Below, piece after piece: positions 351 to 14,857 of a stretch of DNA of 64,000 bases (positions are counted from its first letter, which is position 1; every line of letters starts with the position of its first letter). The notes beneath the pieces were generated by a model, which saw nothing but the letters and a program-made list of their open reading frames with translations, was not told the origin of the DNA and did not search any database. Both the position numbers and the translations under genes were made by a program. Source of the DNA: an uncultured Ectothiorhodospiraceae bacterium (GTDB taxonomy: Bacteria; Pseudomonadota; Gammaproteobacteria; S012-40); contig CALZJE010000003.1 in the NCBI GenBank assembly GCA_945787715.1, forward strand, positions 6,088-70,087, in the 5' to 3' direction.

Positions 351-3852
<3,502 letters not shown>

Positions 3853-4441: not shown

Positions 4442-5446
4442 TTACTCTTTATGGTATGAAACAACTCTTTCTACTTCGTTCTTAGACCCAAGTATTACAG
4501 GCACTCGTTGGTGGATAGCATTCGGCTCGATATCCATAATTCTTTCTCTACCTGTAGAACTCACTCCACCAGCTTGCTCTACGATAAAAGACATTGGGTT
4601 AGCTTCATACATCAAACGCAGTTTACCCGCCTTGGCTGGATCTTTTGTATCGAATGGATACATGAATATCCCACCACGAGTTAAAATTCTGTAAACTTCA
4701 CCAACCATAGATGCAACCCAACGCATGTTGAAGTTCTTGTCACGCGCTCCTGTAACACCATCAATACACTCTTGAACATAACGTTGAACTGGCGCTTCCC
4801 AAAAACGTTGGTTAGACATGTTAACCGCAAACTCAGCTGTGTCTTCAGGGATTGTGATATCCTTGTGAGTAAGTTTGAACTCACCCGTTCCTGGATCAAG
4901 CGTGAAACCTTGCACACCGTTTCCAGTCGTCAAAATCATTAATGTAGATGGTCCGTATAGAGTGAAACCAGCACAAACTTGTTTGTTACCATCTAGCAAG
5001 TAGTCATTTAACTTTGGATCTGTAACGCCTTCCGGGCATTTAACAATTGAAAATATAGAGCCAACAGTAATGTTCACATCGATATTTGATGATCCATCTA
5101 GTGGATCAAAATACATTAGGTATGGGCCTCGAGGATACTCAGCAGGAATGCTATAAACATCTTCTTCTTCTTCCGATGCCATTCCAGCTAGGTTTCCACT
5201 TCCTTCTGTACAACGGATAAACATCTCGTTAGACATAATGTCTAATTTCTTTTGAGTTTCACCTTGTACGTTTTCACTTTCCGCTGAACCTAGAACGCCA
5301 TAAAGCGCTCCATGGTTTATTGCATCGTGTATTTCTTTACATGCTGAAGCAACATCATCAAGTAAATCAATAAGATGTGCATCAACTGCCTCACCAGCGC
5401 GTTGCGCGTTTACAAGGTGTCTTTTTAGCGTAATGGCGTTTTCCAT
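4442..5446 (-). CDS. fbp: Fructose-1,6-bisphosphatase class 1
   Basis: 334 aa with typical FBPase I sequence ([24 protein letters not shown]). Confidence 0.9.
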
Positions 5447-6355: not shown

Positions 6356-6907
6356 TTAGCCGACACTACAGACATATTCTACCGCGTCCAATAGATTATT
6401 CTTGATTGGGATATTATGTGCTTTGAGCTCTGTTGCCTTTTCCGCGAGTGTCTTCTTGCCTTTCCCTGTCAGAACTAATATTGGTTTCACTGAGACTTTA
6501 ATTCCTGCTTCCAAATCTCTGTATGAATCACCAATGGTGTAAACACCACACAGTGATGTTTGATAATATTCTGCCATTTTAGTAAACAGACCAGAATTTG
6601 GTTTTCTACAACTACAATTATCATCTGGTCCATGGGGACAATAAATTATTGCGCTAATTTTCCCGCCTTGTTCGGCGCATAGCTGCCTGAGTTTATTATG
6701 CATTTCATTGAGTGTCTGATGACTATAATAACCGCGAGATATGCCTGATTGATTCGTCGCTACGATGATTTTAAAACCGTGTGATGTTAATCTTGCAATA
6801 GCTTCAATAGAACCTTCTTCAGGCTGCCACTCGTCTACTGTTTTTATGTAGTTATCTGAATCTAAATTTATTACGCCATCCCTATCTAATACGATTAACT
6901 TTTCCAA
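6356..6907 (-). CDS. gmhB: D-glycero-beta-D-manno-heptose-1,7-bisphosphate 7-phosphatase
   Basis: HAD motif LDRDGVIN and the zinc-binding CPHGPDDNCSCRKP typical of GmhB. Confidence 0.8.
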   Translation of the reverse strand: MEKLIVLDRDGVINLDSDNYIKTVDEWQPEEGSIEAIARLTSHGFKIIVATNQSGISRGYYSHQTLNEMHNKLRQLCAEQGGKISAIIYCPHGPDDNCSCRKPNSGLFTKMAEYYQTSLCGVYTIGDSYRDLEAGIKVSVKPILVLTGKGKKTLAEKATELKAHNIPIKNNLLDAVEYVCSVG

Positions 6908-8035
6908 CGTTTCTTTTTCCTAGTCTCGTCACTAATAAAATAATAAATAAATACAGGGACCGTTCACCAAATTTCAGCGAACTTTTTTCAGTTACGCTTC
7001 TAATGTCATTTTTCGTTGAATCTTTGAGTGTTGTGAGATACATCCCTGAGAGATTGTTCCAAATATGCTTTATTACATATATTTTTCCAAATTCATCCAG
7101 AGATATAGATGTTGGATGAATGGGAGGAAATCGATTATCAGTGCCGCCTTCATCTGAAAGAAATATTTTACGCAACCCACTACTAGTTTCCTGAGTTGTA
7201 TCTGACGCATTTAATACAGCAATGTAGCCGTTCTCTATCTCTGAAGTGGTTTCTTCATTCACGATATAGCTTAAGCTAACAAGTAATTCATTCTTTTCTT
7301 GGTGATATAAAATATCGCTAGGTGCAGAATCATTTGGAAATTGATGATTTCCAATTTTAACGAGTGCTGCACTTTCTGGAGTTTCATAATTATCCACTTC
7401 TAATAAAACTAACTCAGAGGCAGCCTTGCCCCGATTTACCACAAAGAGTTTGTTTTCATCAGCTAAATAAACACCCGTTGCAGTCTCTTTCCCCAAACCC
7501 AGACTAATGCTTGCGACTTCAATATTTGTTGGAGATTCTAAACTGACGAGTGAAATACCATCAACTCCATTATCATTTGTACCTATGACAAAAAGATATT
7601 GTTCATCTTCGGAGAGTACAAGACTGGTGCCACAAGGACGCTAACACCTCTATCATGAGTAACAAATAATTTGCTTTCATCATTTGTAAAAACCATACCT
7701 CTCGCAAAACTACCTGGAATTTCTGGTGAGCCAATTAGTGAATTATTTGAGGTATCGATGATATTCAGGTAGGATTTTTCATCCCCATCCTCTTCCAGTT
7801 CTGTGGTAACAAAAACGGTATCGCCAGTTTTGTTGATTAACACATCTCTTGGATTACCAAACAATTCAATCGATTCAACATAGACACTATAACTTGCATT
7901 GACTACATGTAACTGACCATGTTTGTTATCATCACCGACATGGTCTGGTACATAGGCAAAAACGTCTGCTTTTGTATAAGGGGTTAAAATGATCAAGCCG
8001 ATAAATAATAAAAAGATTTGTGAGTGTTTTGTCAT
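6882..8035 (-). pseudogene. Beta-propeller (YVTN/lactonase-like repeat) exported protein, disrupted by a frameshift between 7586 and 7640
   Basis: ORFs 7583..8035 (with signal peptide) and 6882..7496 carry the same repeated blade motifs (KLFVTHDRG, QYLFVIGTNDNG, KLFVVNRG). The downstream frame is open upstream as far as 7641 and overlaps the end of the upstream ORF, which implies a single +/-1 shift. Confidence 0.55.
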
Positions 8036-8150
8036 AAAATTACACTAATGATTTAATTTGGGAGATATTATTTTTATCTCGGCTTCTGAGACGTAAATAT
8101 TATCTTTTTTAAAAGCGGTATATACGAATTTATAAAATAGAATTCGTCAG

Positions 8151-8594
8151 TTATCGATGAATCACATATTTACCAGAAAAACTTACGGCAATTTGGTTTT
8201 CATTTTTAATTTCGACATCCAATAATATGCGTGATCTCCCTCTTTTTTGAAAAGTTGAGATAAATTTTTCGACCACTTCCTTAGATGGCATTTTGCACTT
8301 ACCGATTATATCTGACTGTATTGCCATACTATAATCTATTTCACTATGCTGAATGACCACATGTGCTTTTATATTCTTTCTTAATAAAATCCCATATACC
8401 ATAGCCCAACCTGTGAGCACGGACACATTGTATAAACTACCACCAAATGCAGTCTTCTTATGATTTATATTGGGAGCTAATGGAGCTTTTACAACTATCT
8501 CATCATCGTTAAAACTCTCGATGCTTATCCCCATCTGGGTACTGAGTGGAATTTCAGTATGAATTATTTCTTCGATTATTTTATGTAATTGCAT
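8151..8594 (-). CDS. Hotdog-fold thioesterase-like protein (YiiD C-terminal domain-like)
   Basis: 147 aa that resembles the YiiD_C putative thioesterase family (…KTAFGGSLYNVSVLTGWAMVY…). Assignment is from memory of the family consensus. Confidence 0.4.
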   Translation of the reverse strand: MQLHKIIEEIIHTEIPLSTQMGISIESFNDDEIVVKAPLAPNINHKKTAFGGSLYNVSVLTGWAMVYGILLRKNIKAHVVIQHSEIDYSMAIQSDIIGKCKMPSKEVVEKFISTFQKRGRSRILLDVEIKNENQIAVSFSGKYVIHR

Positions 8595-8621
8595 TTTTAG
8601 GCTTATGTTTAACTATTGGAT

Positions 8622-8830
8622 ATTTCACGAAGCTCTTCTGTTTGCATTGGCTGTACAAAGTAATAACCTCGATAATAATGACAACTATATTCTTTTAAGA
8701 ATTCATGTTGTTCGAAAGTTTCAAAACCCTCAGCAACCACGCTCAAACCCAAGTGATGAGATATTTAAATGATAGTATCAACAATCACTTAACCTTTTCC
8801 AAAATCATCTGTCACAATTAAGACTTGAGG
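8622..8830 (-). pseudogene. Decayed remnant of an EAL-domain (c-di-GMP phosphodiesterase) gene
   Basis: A minus-strand frame gives ISHHLGLSVVAEGFETFEQHEFLKEYSCHYYRGYYFVQPMQTEELRE, which is the EAL C-terminal signature (VAEGVET…GYYF.KP). A different frame ~40 nt upstream gives IVTDDFGKG (the DDFGTGYSS motif). Stops and frameshifts separate the pieces, and the region has no ORF of 60 aa or longer. Confidence 0.55.
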
Positions 8831-9092
8831 ATATAGCTGAACGATGAACTAATTTTTCTTTAATGCATTTCGTAACTGATTTTGTAAACCCTGTTCAAGA
8901 AACCTTTAATGTCACAATATTTTGTGGAGATAAAAAAATTATTATATAAATGGTTAATGTTTTGACAGAATTACTTAAAAAAGATCCATACTCTTTTCAG
9001 TAGTTGCGTGACAATTCAGAAATACTTACAAAATACCGAAACTATTTCTGACCACATTAAATTCAATATTGAATAATAACTAATCAAATATT

Positions 9093-9860
9093 ATGCTAAA
9101 AACTCGAACAATTGTAATGATACTTTCTTTTTTTATGTCTGAAGCTAACGCCATAGTTAATATGGATAACCTCCATTTAAACTCAAATAAGGGAGGAATT
9201 TCAGGGAATTTCAATCTAAATTCATCTGGTGCATATGGGAATAGTGAACAATTTCTTATTGAAAGTGGAGCTGATTTCTATGCCAAACAATCTCAGTCAC
9301 TTCAATATTTAACACTAAACTATAGCTACGGTGAAAGTTTCTCCAAAGAAAATCAAAACAAATCCTATGTTCATCTTCGTCATATCAACAATGTAGACAG
9401 CAGCTCAACTTGGGAAATATTTACCCAAATTGAACAAAACAAATTTGCTCGATTAAACTTTAGAGGTTTAGTTGGTGGAGGCTATCGATGGAGTTTTTTA
9501 AAACATTCTAAACATAGCTCATCAATCATCGGTGTTGGTGCTTACTTTAGTGAGGAATATTTAACCCACTCTAGTGACATTAGTGAAGAAAGAAGCCTGC
9601 AATTGTTTCGAGGTAACTTCTATTGGATTTTTCGCACTAACATCTTAGAGAACATTACATTATTTAACACCACATACTATCAACCTGATCTCGAAAACCC
9701 TGATGATTACCGAGTTTTGGAAATAGCCGGGATCAAAATACCTTTATCAAAAAATTTGAGATTGAATTTATATGGGGAAGGAACTTTCGATAGCAAACCA
9801 CCAGCTAATGTAAAAAAAGGTGATTTGTCATATAAGACTGGAATTGAGTATAAGTTCTAA
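9093..9860 (+). CDS. Outer-membrane beta-barrel protein, DUF481-like
   Basis: Signal peptide, ~255 aa, alternating amphipathic beta-strand pattern and a C-terminal aromatic (…GIEYKF). Confidence 0.45.
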   Translation: MLKTRTIVMILSFFMSEANAIVNMDNLHLNSNKGGISGNFNLNSSGAYGNSEQFLIESGADFYAKQSQSLQYLTLNYSYGESFSKENQNKSYVHLRHINNVDSSSTWEIFTQIEQNKFARLNFRGLVGGGYRWSFLKHSKHSSSIIGVGAYFSEEYLTHSSDISEERSLQLFRGNFYWIFRTNILENITLFNTTYYQPDLENPDDYRVLEIAGIKIPLSKNLRLNLYGEGTFDSKPPANVKKGDLSYKTGIEYKF

Positions 9861-9909
9861 AACTTAGAGACATATGCTAATACAAATGTCTCATCTACAT
9901 AGTGAAATC

Positions 9910-11973
9910 CTAAGATAACTTGGATATATCAGCAATTCGAGAAAATTGTTGATAGAGTTTTGAAAGCATCGCCAAACGATTATTTCTCACAGCTTTGTTA
10001 TCCGTCATTACCATCACGTGATCAAAAAAATCATCTATTGATTCTTTAAGTTGAGACAACAACTTCAGCGCTTGATCATAATCTTGCTTTTCAACGAGTG
10101 AATTTACATCAGACTCTAGCTCAGTTAATCGAGAATAGAGAATATTTTCTTGTTCTCCTTCAAAAAGATCAACATTAACATCTGAAGGCAACTCTTCTTT
10201 ATTTTTACGCAATATATTACTAATTCTTTTATTCGCTGCGGCTAACGCTTCTGATTCTGGTGATTTTTCAAACAACGCTACCGAATTCATGCGCGCATCA
10301 AAGTTTGCAGGTATTGTTGGCCGTGCTGCTAAAACTGCTTCGAATACTTGTGGTCGATACCCTTGCTCGTGATAGTAACCTTTCAAGCGATCCATCATAA
10401 ACTCATAAACTACGCCAACAACTTCATTATTCTTCAACGAATATTGTTTCGCTACGATTGTTAGAAGCTTATCAAGATCAAGTAGCAATGACTTTTCAAT
10501 CATTATTCGCAATATTCCCAATGTCGCCCGTCTTAATGCAAATGGATCTTTATCACCAGTGGGGATTAGGCCAATAGAAAAAATTCCAACAAGCGTATCT
10601 AATTTATCCGCCAGAGAGACAATTTGCCCAACTTTTGATGGTGGCAAACTATCACCAGCAAAGCGAGGCATGTAGTGCTCTAAAATAGCTTCCGCAACCT
10701 CTGCATCTTCTTTATCGTGAAGTGCGTAATAGCGGCCCATTATTCCCTGTAATTCCGGGAATTCACCAACCATTTCTGTCATCAAATCACACTTTGAAAG
10801 TTCTGCAGCACGCACAACGTGTTTTTTATCGACGCCAAGCTGCTTAGCAATTGCTTCAGCAAGCCCCATCACCCGAGTCGTTTTGTCGTATAGCGTTCCT
10901 AATTTGTTCTGGAAAACAACTGTCTTTAATTTTTGTAATTCAGTATTGAGCGGTGTTTTTCTATCCGTATTCCAGAAAAAATCTGCATCACTTAACCGAG
11001 GATGAATAACTCGTTCATTACCCTGTTTAACGGTATCAGGATTTTTACTGTCAATATTTGAAACAGTGATAAAACACGGCAGCAATTCATCATCTTTAAT
11101 CACATGAAAATATTTTTGATGACTTTTCATCGCTGAAACCAAAGCTTCCGAAGGAATTTCTAAAAATTTCTCATCAAAATTTCCTAAAATTGCTTTTGGC
11201 CATTCCACAAGCCCTGTGACTTCATTGAGTAATGCTTCATCAATAACCGCTAAACCATTTACTTTGAGAGCAGCTTGTTCTACTTGCGCTTTAATGGCTG
11301 CTTTTCGTTTTTCAAAATTGGCTAGCACGTGACCATTAAGTTCCAACAACGATTCATAATCTGATGGATTCGGTAATTCGATCGGTTCAGGATAGTGGAA
11401 TCGATGTCCTTTGGTTGTTCTTCCCGCTTTTAATCCGAGTACTGAACAATCGACCACGTCGCTACCGAGCAACATCACTAACCAATGAACTGGTCTTACG
11501 AATTGAGTCTGGCTGTCTCCCCAACGCATGCGCTTTGGTATAGGCAATTTAGCCAGAGCTTCTTCCACCATTGACGGAAGAAGTTCTCTTGTCTCTTCAC
11601 CTTTCACAGTGCTTCTGAAAACTAGCCAGGCCCCTTTATCGGTATCTGCTTTTTCCAATTCGTCTACTGAAACGCCACATGAGCGAGCAAATCCTACTGC
11701 AGCAGGTGTAGGGCAACCGTCCTCTTTAAACGCAGCACTCACTGCAGGGCCTCTTCGTTCAACTTCTTTGTTTTCTTGTTTTAACAAAATAGAAGATATT
11801 TTCACCGCCAATCGCCTTGGGGATGCAAAATTTTCTACTTCACCAAAAGTAACACCAGCCTTTTCCAGACTTTCAACGAGATTGTCAGAAAATGTTTTTG
11901 ATAACTTCTCTAATGCTTTTGGTGGAAGTTCTTCGGTCCCCAATTCAACAAGAAAATCTGCTGTATTTGACAT
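9910..11973 (-). CDS. glyS: Glycine--tRNA ligase beta subunit
   Basis: 687 aa, typical GlyS. Its start overlaps the glyQ stop (ATGA). Confidence 0.9.
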   Translation of the reverse strand: MSNTADFLVELGTEELPPKALEKLSKTFSDNLVESLEKAGVTFGEVENFASPRRLAVKISSILLKQENKEVERRGPAVSAAFKEDGCPTPAAVGFARSCGVSVDELEKADTDKGAWLVFRSTVKGEETRELLPSMVEEALAKLPIPKRMRWGDSQTQFVRPVHWLVMLLGSDVVDCSVLGLKAGRTTKGHRFHYPEPIELPNPSDYESLLELNGHVLANFEKRKAAIKAQVEQAALKVNGLAVIDEALLNEVTGLVEWPKAILGNFDEKFLEIPSEALVSAMKSHQKYFHVIKDDELLPCFITVSNIDSKNPDTVKQGNERVIHPRLSDADFFWNTDRKTPLNTELQKLKTVVFQNKLGTLYDKTTRVMGLAEAIAKQLGVDKKHVVRAAELSKCDLMTEMVGEFPELQGIMGRYYALHDKEDAEVAEAILEHYMPRFAGDSLPPSKVGQIVSLADKLDTLVGIFSIGLIPTGDKDPFALRRATLGILRIMIEKSLLLDLDKLLTIVAKQYSLKNNEVVGVVYEFMMDRLKGYYHEQGYRPQVFEAVLAARPTIPANFDARMNSVALFEKSPESEALAAANKRISNILRKNKEELPSDVNVDLFEGEQENILYSRLTELESDVNSLVEKQDYDQALKLLSQLKESIDDFFDHVMVMTDNKAVRNNRLAMLSKLYQQFSRIADISKLS

Positions 11974-12902
11974 TATTTAGCCTCCCCAATGTTTTTATTG
12001 AGCATAGGGAAACCCAAATTTTCTCGACAATCGTAATAAGAGTGAGCAACTGCTTTAGACAAATTTCTTACACGACCAATAAATCTTGCACGTTCTGTCA
12101 CCGATATCGCGTGACGTGCATCTAGCAAATTAAAGGTGTGTGATGCCTTTAAAACCATTTCGTAGGCAGGTAACGGCAAATTCAATTCAATGAGTCGATT
12201 ACCTTCTTTTTCATAAAAATCAAATAGTGTAAATAACGTATCTACAGGGGCATGTTCAAAATTGTAGGTAGACATCTCAACTTCGTTTTGATGAAAAACA
12301 TCGCCATAAGTGACTTTACCTTGTGGACCATTTGCCCAGGTTAGATCATACACACTAGAGACCCCTTGTATGTACATTGCGAGTCTTTCTAGACCATAGG
12401 TAATTTCACCGGTTACCGGTTTGCAATCTAAGCCGCCCACTTGTTGAAAATAGGTAAATTGCGTGACTTCCATGCCATTCAACCAAACTTCCCAACCTAA
12501 CCCCCAGGCACCAAGAGTTGGAGATTCCCAGTCATCTTCTACAAATCGAATGTCATGTTCTAGGGTGTCAAAACCAAGCATTTTCAATGAATCTAGATAC
12601 AATTCTTGAATATTATCGGGAGATGGCTTCAATATTACCTGAAATTGGTAGTAATGTTGTAAGCGATTTGGGTTTTCCCCATAACGCCCATCAGTTGGTC
12701 TTCGCGACGGCTGAACATATGCTGCATTCCATGGTTCAGGGCCAATTGAACGTAAAAAAGTCGCAGGATGAAACGTACCTGCGCCTACCTCTATGTCAAG
12801 TGGCTGAATAATCACACAGCCTTGATCTGCCCAATAGTGCTGTAGAGCAAGAATTAGCCCCTGAAAGGTTGAAATATCAACATTAGCATCCGAAATTTGC
12901 AT
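11973..12902 (-). CDS. glyQ: Glycine--tRNA ligase alpha subunit
   Basis: 309 aa, highly conserved GlyQ sequence (…[25 protein letters not shown]…). Confidence 0.9.
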
Positions 12903-13128
12903 ATTGTTAGTGTGTTTCGCGAAAAAAGCGTAAGTATACCGATGCCACCCTGCAAAAACTATCTTTGCTGCCTATATCTCACAGGATATTTCATGAAAGT
13001 TATAACAGAGAACTAAAAAGCAGCATTTGCTTAAATCTCCTTTTAATCAAAATGGATAATCAGATCGTAAAGTATGTGTTTATTTGAGCCGATTAACTAA
13101 ACAGACCATTTAAAGAGAATATATCAAT

Positions 13129-13701
13129 ATGTCTCAAATCATTATCGATTCAAGTAGTACAGAACAATGGCAAAAGTTGGTTCATGAAGCAGAATCTTTA
13201 TGTGAATTTCAATTAGACGAAGAGTTAGAAAGCTATTTGGTATTTTTATTAATGCGCTTTTTAGGTCGTTCGGACTTTACTTCTCGAATAATGGCGATGG
13301 ATTATCTTCATAGCCTAATCCAAACCGGTCAATTACAACAGGAAAGCTTAAGAGATGTGGGGGATCACTGTTTACTGTTTTCTGGTCTATTCCCAAAAAT
13401 AGCAGAGAGACGAAGTGTGAAAATTAGCTACTACGTTGGGATTGGCAAAAGTGCGTATAGCCACTTGGCTGATACCTGCAAAGAAAGTTTAGGAACTTTT
13501 TACCGCCAGTTAGCTGATGCTTTTGTGCAACTAATGGATATTCTTCAAGTAATTGGCAATATGCGAAACAACGCAGAAGTTCTTTCGCCATTAGAAGCAC
13601 TAGAATTATGGGGAGATACTCAAAGTAAACAAGCACTTAGATCCATCCGAAGCTTTTCAAAGGGAACACCAATAATTCATTCGCAATCCACAAAGCATTA
13701 A
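13129..13701 (+). CDS. Hypothetical protein
   Basis: 190-aa ORF with a plausible start. No recognisable motifs. Transcribed divergently from glyQ. Confidence 0.4.
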   Translation: MSQIIIDSSSTEQWQKLVHEAESLCEFQLDEELESYLVFLLMRFLGRSDFTSRIMAMDYLHSLIQTGQLQQESLRDVGDHCLLFSGLFPKIAERRSVKISYYVGIGKSAYSHLADTCKESLGTFYRQLADAFVQLMDILQVIGNMRNNAEVLSPLEALELWGDTQSKQALRSIRSFSKGTPIIHSQSTKH

Positions 13702-14857
13702 ATAATATTTTCGGCATAAATAATGTATTTATTACAGTAAGCAGCTTTAGCTATCTTTAGTTTCGTGATTTGATAATTAACCCAGCCGAATTAAATTCGA
13801 AGTCTTTCTTTTCTTTTCCCACAGTTATCCACTTCCTCTAATAAATAATATATCTATATATAAAAACTTATTGTTATTATTGGTTCAATCATTTTTGTGG
13901 TTAAGTTTCGATTTAGTTATATTTTTCATCATCTTACTGAGAGTTTTTTGTATTAACAAATTGTATAAATATACTTAACTAAGCTGTGGGTAACTTGTTC
14001 ACAAAAAGCGTTATTTTCCGTTCCGATTTTCTATTAACAAGTTATCAACAGTCTATTCCAATTTTATACACGTGTTTTTAAGAATAAATGGCGATCTACG
14101 AGTATTTACCGTTACTAGGTTAGTTAAATACCAGTATTTTTTATGGATATGATTATTACTCGATTCAAACGCAGTGCTTTATTGCAGAAATGCTTTTAAA
14201 ATGACTGATAATTATTAACCACTCTTTTCACATTTACTCTCCAAAATAAAACATTTCTATTATTAGGGGAATAAGAGTTGAATTTAGTGATAATATTTCT
14301 TATAAGAATTTTTTGGCTTTTTACAGATCTTCAAAAACTTTCTACCGGCATAAAATTTGAATCTAATTTATTAAACATATTAACCCCTTTATGTTTTTGG
14401 CTGCTGGTTTGAGACTTCCCCTTAAAACTCAGATCAGCAGCTTTCCTTTATTATTTTTCTTTAGTTATTAACATCTCTATATATAAATATATATCTATAT
14501 ATAAAAATTTGTTGTTGTTATTGAGTCTAAAATATTTGTGGGTAACTTCTATTATCTTATTATTATTCAATATGTTATTTATCAGTATAAGGCTCAACAA
14601 GTTGTATGGATATACTCATCTAAGCTGTGGATAACTTGTTTACAAATATGGTCTTTTTTACATAGAAAATTTTATCAACAGCTTATACACAAGCTACACA
14701 AGTGTTATACACGCGTTCTTTAAGTCAACTTTTGATATTTTTTAACCATTTCCCTCCACTTTTTCAGCTACAATATGCAGTATTTTTTGTAATCCTCCAC
14801 CTGTTGTTATTCTAGGATCGGCTCCTTGGAGTATCTGGAGGTTATGTTTTAATTTTT
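13702..14857. other. Non-coding AT-rich region with clustered DnaA-box-like 9-mers and an AT-rich repeated element; candidate oriC or DnaA-binding locus
   Basis: Boxes matching TTATNCACA or its complement: TTATCCACt 13825-13833, TGTGGtTAA 13896-13904, TGTGGgTAA 13985-13993, TTATCaACA 14042-14050, TTATACACg 14064-14072, TGTGGgTAA 14537-14545, TGTGGATAA 14626-14634, TTATCaACA 14672-14680, TTATACACA 14683-14691, TTATACACg 14705-14713. They sit in two ~230-bp homologous modules, each headed by ATATCTATATATAAAAA. Confidence 0.55.

Follow-up and report, generated by a model that had tools for sequence, protein, structure and literature searches.

Deletion-biased erosion of pseudogenes into 'intergenic' relics is known from Rickettsia, Mycobacterium leprae and insect symbionts. 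Among the genes of c-di-GMP turnover, an active EAL domain needs the Glu of EAL, an Asn, the Glu of E(L)xxE, the Asp-Asp of DDFG, the Lys of KxD, the Glu of EGVE and the Gln of QG. Lineage-specific pseudogenisation of GGDEF and EAL genes is already well documented; five of the nine GGDEF or GGDEF-EAL genes of Shigella flexneri are described as mutated in PMC11327459, and degradation of the c-di-GMP pathway is described for Salmonella Paratyphi A in bioRxiv 10.64898/2026.06.04.730116. Here, we analysed a 64-kb stretch of DNA (the window, that is, the whole stretch at its full length) from an uncultured environmental gammaproteobacterium. Judged by comparison with the sequences of its relatives, a 498-nt spacer in this window almost certainly holds the non-functional, orthologue-derived remnant of a ~3.05-kb GAF-PAS-GGDEF-EAL gene that was destroyed by three deletions.

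Results

Pieces of an EAL domain in a 498-nt spacer

The spacer lies between a DUF481 gene and a yiiD_C-type gene, its longest ORF in the ORF list of the window is at most 55 aa, and the public record of the same organism (contig L081) has no called gene in it. The initial annotation had placed a degraded EAL-domain pseudogene at 8622-8830. The place was right and the extent was not, since the coding remnant in fact runs from 8609 to 8881 and is preceded by the ancestral 5′ intergenic region (8882-9092). The features of the locus are as follows.

9093..9860, plus strand: intact, divergent DUF481 gene, 255 aa (Pfam DUF481, E 6.4e-22), the upstream boundary of the locus
8882..9092, no strand assigned: ancestral intergenic region between DUF481 and the lost gene, kept when the 2348-nt deletion took the leader and codons 1-764
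8609..8881, minus strand: what is left of the GAF-PAS-GGDEF-EAL coding sequence, a single frame of 91 codons with three collinear EAL-domain pieces
8810..8881, minus strand: piece B, the EAL-domain start, orthologue residues 765-788, reading NQLRNALKKN, stop, FIVQLYPQVLIV
8790..8809, minus strand: piece C with DDFG(K)G, matching orthologue residues ~919-925, between the 390-nt deletion on its upstream side and the 93-nt deletion on its downstream side
8609..8789, minus strand: piece D, the C-terminal 59 EAL codons and the original stop, from blastn to the relative L082
8851..8849, minus strand: internal stop TAG in piece B, a point mutation
8791..8789, minus strand: internal stop TAA, made by the 93-nt deletion junction
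8767..8765, minus strand: internal stop TAA, a point mutation
8151..8594, minus strand: intact yiiD_C-type thioesterase-domain gene, 147 aa (Pfam YiiD_C, E 2.7e-45)

With its stops written out, the minus-strand frame of the spacer reads ...LEQGLQNQLRNALKKN, stop, FIVQLYPQVLIVTDDFGKG, stop, VIVDTII, stop, ISHHLGLSVVAEGFETFEQHEFLKEYSCHYYRGYYFVQPMQTEELREISNS, stop. The EAL C-terminal signature and the DDFG(K)G motif were both found where they had been reported on the minus strand, with IVTDDFGKG at 8809..8792 and ISHHLGLSVVAEGFETFEQHEFLKEYSCHYYRGYYFVQPMQTEELREISNS ending at the stop 8611..8609. They had been assigned to different frames about 40 nt apart; in fact, DDFGKG and SHHLGL share one frame and are 48 nt apart, with two TAA codons between them. 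These two codons (8791..8789 and 8767..8765) are the stops that were said to interrupt the frame, and the shortened distance from DDFG to LGL, also noticed before, is due to the 93-nt deletion. The statement that the rest of the gene is gone was mostly correct, but it missed a third collinear piece from the EAL N-terminus (8881..8810), which lies outside the coordinates given at the time.

The absence of a significant EAL alignment in a formal search had been named as the outcome that would count against a pseudogene. Pfam EAL (PF00563) matched the stop-masked translation significantly (E 2.3e-10; the 40.7 bits exceed the gathering score, which is 31.3), and the match was limited to profile positions 186-236 of 236. 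When the intact 1015-aa orthologue was compared with the window by tblastn, the E value was 1e-26 with 73-75% identity over 56 codons; with the intact orthologues as queries, E ranged from 1e-26 to 7e-28 for the C-terminal piece and from 4e-09 to 1e-07 for the N-terminal piece. The 98-aa conceptual translation had one match in a large protein database, the 112-aa fragment P0001, and this is where the 31-codon gap was first visible. A complete EAL domain has about 236 positions in an open frame, and the remnant has 90 codons in three pieces with internal stops, which means that at most 38% of the domain (at most 90 of 236 profile positions) is kept in the window. No Rfam family matched anywhere in the window, so a reading of the spacer as an RNA element was dropped.

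Relatives keep an intact gene at the same position

A yiiD_C search of a large protein collection found relatives at 87%, 78% and 65% identity (contigs L082, L084 and L087/L088, from ENA ERZ27251221, JGI 3300032373 and Logan SRR9045884, respectively). The gene order in these three uncultured relatives is glyQ, glyS, DUF481 (on the opposite strand), a 1015/1016-aa gene, yiiD_C, a 432-437-aa gene, gmhB, plsC and fbp. The order in the window is the same, except that the 498-nt spacer stands in place of the 3.05-kb gene. Thus, the intact gene that the initial annotation had expected at the orthologous locus of relatives is present in all three, at exactly the same position, with the same DUF481 gene on one side (L082, L084 and L087) and flanks that match on both sides, as expected for a unitary pseudogene in the window. 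The yiiD_C gene starts 14 nt past the stop of the remnant in the window and 14-15 nt past the intact gene in the relatives, and its dN/dS is 0.09-0.13 when the window is compared with L082 and L084 (for L087, synonymous sites are saturated).

The same species is represented by a second assembly. Contig L081 (CALZGR010000255.1, MAG GCA_945786995.1) encodes an identical GlyQ, is 99.93% identical to window positions 7634-14817 and carries an identical 498-nt spacer. An exact-match search of an assembly index with the yiiD_C protein was negative. Among GTDB species representatives, a scan with the yiiD_C peptide found no relative, and a scan with GlyQ found 80 gammaproteobacterial loci at 75-84% identity with the usual glyQ-glyS-gmhB-plsC order; in none of these 80 loci were DUF481, yiiD_C or the remnant found beside glyS.

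In a fourth lineage, L170, an orthologue whose protein is 75% identical occupies the same place, and an additional 793-aa GGDEF-EAL gene lies upstream of it. This lineage has two GGDEF-EAL genes in tandem (793 and 1016 aa), and its yiiD_C is called at just 104 aa. The island between glyS and gmhB/plsC varies in its c-di-GMP genes among relatives (L170 4347-10528, L091 354-4103, L093 797-4613 and L096 4852-5934).

The lost gene encodes a composite membrane sensor in relatives

The initial annotation regarded the lost gene as that of a c-di-GMP phosphodiesterase. This description was too narrow. The L082 protein has a hydrophobic membrane region of ~230 aa at its N-terminus, followed by GAF (301-439), PAS (460-571), GGDEF (583-745, E 4e-52) and EAL (765-1003, E 1e-76) domains, and its sequence contains RSED five residues before GGDEF (the I-site), EALIRW, NVSPRQ, ELEITE, DDFGTG, KIDKSF, AEGVET and QGFYF. 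By the usual motif criteria, both its GGDEF and its EAL domain look catalytically competent. The relatives' gene thus joins both domains and the sensor domains in one polypeptide, as in a composite GGDEF-EAL protein, which the remnant in the window does not. Since the GGDEF and EAL motifs of the ancestral protein are both intact, the loss concerns a composite sensor, and the proposed loss of c-di-GMP signalling capacity holds for this one gene only. Within the 64-kb window, no further GGDEF or EAL match was found. In a search of 5.8 billion proteins, the closest match from any NCBI source had 44% identity.

The best NCBIfam match of the orthologue is DibA, with 504 bits against an equivalog cut-off of 980, and all other matches are also below their cut-off; because of these scores, the ancestral gene is placed outside every named equivalog family (DibA, DosP, HmsP, LapD and others). 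Amino-acid identity of the orthologues is 96% for the pair L082/L084 and 91% in the comparison with L087, and dN/dS is 0.034. This makes the 1015-aa gene the most conserved of the island, as DUF481, yiiD_C, gmhB and plsC are just 62-70% identical to L087. Such conservation (L082 4939-7986) is unusual for a GGDEF-EAL sensor, and it makes the complete loss in the window lineage more notable.

Three deletions account for the length of the spacer

Comparison of the spacer with L082 by blastn gave four collinear segments which cover the whole spacer, and three deletions lie between them.

Window 9089..8876, minus strand, L082 4673-4888: ancestral intergenic region between DUF481 and the big gene, 73% identity, E 1e-29
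Deletion of 2348 nt, L082 4883-7230: the last ~56 nt of the leader and codons 1-764 (membrane region, GAF, PAS, GGDEF)
Window 8883..8815, minus strand, L082 7229-7297: EAL-domain start, 83% identity, E 4e-16
Deletion of 390 nt, L082 7303-7692: 130 codons of the EAL catalytic core, including EAL, Asn and ELEITE
Window 8813..8790, minus strand, L082 7689-7712: DDFG motif, 24 nt, 92% identity
Deletion of 93 nt, L082 7713-7805: 31 codons between DDFG and the last helices, including KID
Window 8798..8601, minus strand, L082 7796-7994: EAL C-terminus and stop, 82% identity, E 4e-54

Together, the deletions remove 2831 of ~3050 nt (93% of the gene). The lengths balance, as 3328 nt in L082 minus 2831 gives 497 nt and 498 nt are observed in the window. 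When L082, L084 and L087 are spliced at the inferred breakpoints, they reproduce the 91-codon remnant codon for codon. At the third junction, the spliced orthologues also give a TAA (GGT TA/A G.., with the slash at the junction), which shows that the 93-nt deletion itself gave rise to the TAA at 8791..8789.

The 2348-nt deletion is bounded in L082 by AACCAGCTT and AATCAGCTT, which form a direct repeat matching at 8 of 9 positions, and the junction in the window is AATCAGTTA. We estimate the chance probability of such a match to be of the order of 1e-4, and the junction sequence fits a deletion between short direct repeats. Microhomology is 4/6 at the 390-nt junction and 1-2 nt at the 93-nt junction, which does not exceed what chance would give. 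The lengths of both internal deletions are divisible by three; this is expected by chance in about 1 of 9 cases and carries no weight either way.

The remnant is drifting neutrally

For the count of substitutions, we took the sites that are the same in all three intact relatives and different in the window. The window-specific changes comprise 3 synonymous and 19 non-synonymous ones (86% non-synonymous, compared to 79% under random mutation). On the intact branches, the ratios of synonymous to non-synonymous changes are 2:1 (L082), 6:5 (L084) and 26:5 (L087), or 34 and 11 when pooled, and the window differs from the pooled relatives with p = 3e-6 (Fisher test). Since the ratio is 3:19 in the window and 34:11 in the intact relatives, the remnant is drifting neutrally. 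Both the lesions (three deletions and three internal stops) and the relaxed selection are found on the window branch only. Taken together, the profile match, synteny, collinearity and the 3:19 substitution pattern back the decayed EAL-domain pseudogene that was originally proposed.

In the remnant, 0.11-0.13 changes per site fall on the window branch, compared to 0.19-0.25 at the four-fold sites of five flanking genes. As a rough estimate, the gene has therefore been dead for about half of the time since the split from L082. Because the remnant is identical in the two assemblies of the species despite a within-species divergence of 0.07%, the loss is old and fixed.

Compared with an active EAL phosphodiesterase, only DDFG and the AEG(F)E glutamates are kept. 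The deletions took away the glutamates of EAL and ELEITE, the Asn and the lysine of KxD, and Arg now stands in place of the final Gln (QG to RG); all of these residues are present in the intact orthologue. By these motifs, the remnant is without catalytic potential, and residual activity is excluded because 93% of the gene is deleted and the catalytic core is absent.

Conserved sequences at both ends of the spacer

Upstream of the coding remnant, the following site was found.

8941..8968, minus strand: promoter-like CTGTCA-16-TATAAT, pointing to the remnant and yiiD_C, putative in function, inside the ~30-nt block GCTGTCAnAACATTAACCnTTTATnTAATAAT

The site has 10/12 matches to the consensus and is one of 9 such sites in the region, compared to 6.6 ± 3.0 in shuffled sequences. 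The block GCTGTCAnAACATTAACCnTTTATnTAATAAT (8941-8975, minus strand; L082 ~4790-4825) is nearly invariant in four lineages, including the outgroup L087 with its saturated synonymous sites; its -10-like hexamer is TATAAT in the window and TGTAAT in the relatives. The block is probably a cis-regulatory element, either of the lost gene or of DUF481, as judged by its conservation. No alignment to the block was found in the upstream region of L170, where the second GGDEF-EAL gene lies between DUF481 and the orthologue. No terminator-like site was found in 8100-9300. At the other end, the last ~25 nt of the remnant (GAAGAGCTTCGTGAAATATCC, 8615-8640, minus strand) are free of changes specific to the window, and their DNA sequence hardly varies across the four lineages, which could be due to chance or to a constraint tied to yiiD_C expression.

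A second gene of the island is decaying

Two genes downstream of the remnant lies another broken gene.

6882..8035, minus strand: beta-propeller-like gene, broken, 432-437 aa in relatives

The protein of the relatives has a signal peptide, a hydrophobic anchor at its C-terminus and weak similarity to beta-propellers of the YncE/YVTN type. In the window, a 49-nt frameshift deletion between 7634 and 7633 splits the gene, as seen from a jump from frame -1 to -3 in tblastn and from the DNA alignment, and a 114-nt in-frame deletion between 6958 and 6957 takes its Cys-rich segment. Past the position that corresponds to 7634, L081 (7185-7222) continues for 38 nt that are homologous to undeleted L082 sequence, and then the contig ends. 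Since L081 is without the deletion, the 49-nt deletion is polymorphic in the species, or at least differs between the assemblies, which suggests that this polymorphism broke the L081 assembly there.

In the 16-kb syntenic block, the 11 remaining genes (recF, gyrB, a 162/187-aa ORF, fbp, plsC, gmhB, yiiD_C, DUF481, glyS, glyQ and a 190-aa ORF) match the L082 lengths to within a few codons, and those at 13 to 22 kb in the window are undamaged and in synteny with the genes of more distant relatives. Because the 11 block genes are intact, general genome degradation is not evident in the window; these genes and those at 13 to 22 kb argue against general genome reduction. Only two genes, both in one island, are affected by decay.

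In L091 and L093, an 800-814-aa GGDEF-EAL gene that is 35% identical over GGDEF-EAL lies directly upstream of a propeller homologue, and in L096 the propeller homologue occurs alone with no GGDEF-EAL gene. The recurrence of the pairing in distant relatives suggests a functional link and does not prove it. It is conceivable, though we consider it unlikely, that the sensor and the secreted beta-propeller work together as a conserved pair, which would link c-di-GMP signalling to a protein of the cell surface, and that this pair is being lost stepwise. The sensor would have gone first (an old, fixed loss with 273 nt remaining) and the partner would now follow through the still-polymorphic 49-nt deletion, with yiiD_C surviving on the promoter of the dead gene and the remnant leader.

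Other features of the window

A 1.16-kb gap without ORFs at 13702-14857 holds 8 of the 34 DnaA-box matches of the window (TTATCCACA, at most one mismatch), at 13825-14691. It coincides with the minimum of the cumulative GC skew and with a switch of gene orientation from minus to plus, and recF-gyrB are nearby (351-3852). The gap was considered as another pseudogene; this was rejected in favour of oriC, and the gap is likely the chromosomal replication origin. At E 1e-8, Pfam gave no match for three consecutive plus-strand ORFs at 22908-26826 (239, 440 and 622 aa), behind which an Amidase_2 protein and then a trypsin-like protease are encoded.

Discussion

We propose that the ancestor had a ~3.05-kb gene for a 1015-aa membrane sensor between DUF481 and yiiD_C, in a lineage-specific island from glyS to gmhB. 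In the window lineage, deletions of 2348, 390 and 93 nt destroyed this gene; point mutations added two stops and a deletion junction one, so that 273 nt of EAL coding sequence, now in neutral drift, and the ancestral upstream region are what survives. The 2348-nt deletion may have arisen by slippage or illegitimate recombination between the short direct repeats, and the leftover sequence may persist because it is flanked by a kept promoter region and a still-needed yiiD_C. The sensor was probably lost first, with the decay of the beta-propeller gene still in progress, and its loss may have relaxed the selection on this neighbour. We found no evidence that contradicts the pseudogene status, and the weak points of this history are confined to its inferred steps.

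The same spacer could be read in other ways. A 47-aa ORF at 8609-8752 (TTG start, MGLSVVAEGF...) exists in it, and its last ~8 codons are unchanged compared to L082, so one may ask whether the EAL C-terminus now makes a functional micro-protein. This is very improbable, as the ORF has 12 window-specific amino-acid changes at positions that are invariant in the three relatives, among them the conserved Gln-to-Arg change and a Val-to-Phe change in AEGVE, and its TTG start has no evident ribosome-binding site. No autonomous function is known for a piece of a TIM-barrel-like domain with just its last two or three helices. Collapsed or chimeric metagenome assembly could also have removed most of an intact gene, since the source is evidently metagenome-assembled and the neighbouring 49-nt indel differs between two assemblies. 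The independent public contig L081 (GCA_945786995.1) has the identical 498-nt spacer, however, and three deletions, stops from point mutations and a neutral substitution pattern are not products of assembly errors, which makes the chance of such an artefact almost negligible.

Another explanation is compatible with a dead gene. The remnant, together with the upstream region, could be kept as promoter and 5′ leader of yiiD_C, which is intact and constrained and in the relatives is probably co-transcribed with the big gene. The 2348-nt deletion spared the ancestral upstream region, the conserved block has its promoter-like site on the correct strand (TATAAT in the window, TGTAAT in relatives) with no terminator-like site between it and yiiD_C, the stop-to-start spacing is still 14 nt and no change has occurred in the last ~25 nt of the remnant. 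However, promoter-like sites are no more frequent here than in shuffles, the block could serve the divergent DUF481 gene instead, the upstream region of L170 does not align to it, and most of the remnant evidently tolerates change, as it has taken up 19 non-synonymous changes and three stops. On balance, retention of the remnant for this role is possible but rather unlikely. With moderate-to-low confidence, we suggest that yiiD_C was formerly co-transcribed with the big gene and now depends on the candidate promoter, with the remnant of the dead gene as a passive leader; such a role would explain the survival of these particular ends.

With the deletional remnant as the preferred reading, a spacer that appeared empty is explained base by base, and this guards against misreading it as a regulatory RNA or a new small gene. 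The locus is also a datable example of deletional erosion with exact breakpoints, one deletion flanked by direct repeats and one stop made by a junction. This lineage has dropped a sensor that its relatives conserve above any neighbouring gene, and the adjacent conserved partner is failing too, which hints at a changed surface or biofilm behaviour in the window lineage.

Compared to known systems, the orthologue of the lost gene shares the C-terminal architecture of PAS-GGDEF-EAL phosphodiesterases such as DibA (NCBIfam NF045675) and PRK10060, its best NCBIfam matches, and the DibA alignment covers its residues 440-1010; it differs from DibA in the extra N-terminal membrane region of ~230 aa and the GAF domain. 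The mode of decay resembles the erosion in Rickettsia, M. leprae and symbionts in that multiple deletions leave short, stop-ridden, collinear fragments in a seemingly non-coding spacer, whereas the window has no sign of genome-wide reduction. With host-adapted enterobacteria, the locus shares the lineage-specific inactivation of a c-di-GMP turnover gene that is intact in relatives, recognisable by synteny and disabling mutations. The Shigella cases described in PMC11327459 are mostly nonsense or frameshift mutations with the domains left in place, and some of the proteins there still make c-di-GMP; in contrast, 93% of the gene is physically deleted in the window, and the host is an uncultured environmental gammaproteobacterium. 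Taken together, these comparisons show that the remnant is a clear but ordinary case of bacterial gene decay, which differs from the known ones in degree, in setting and in its exact breakpoint map.
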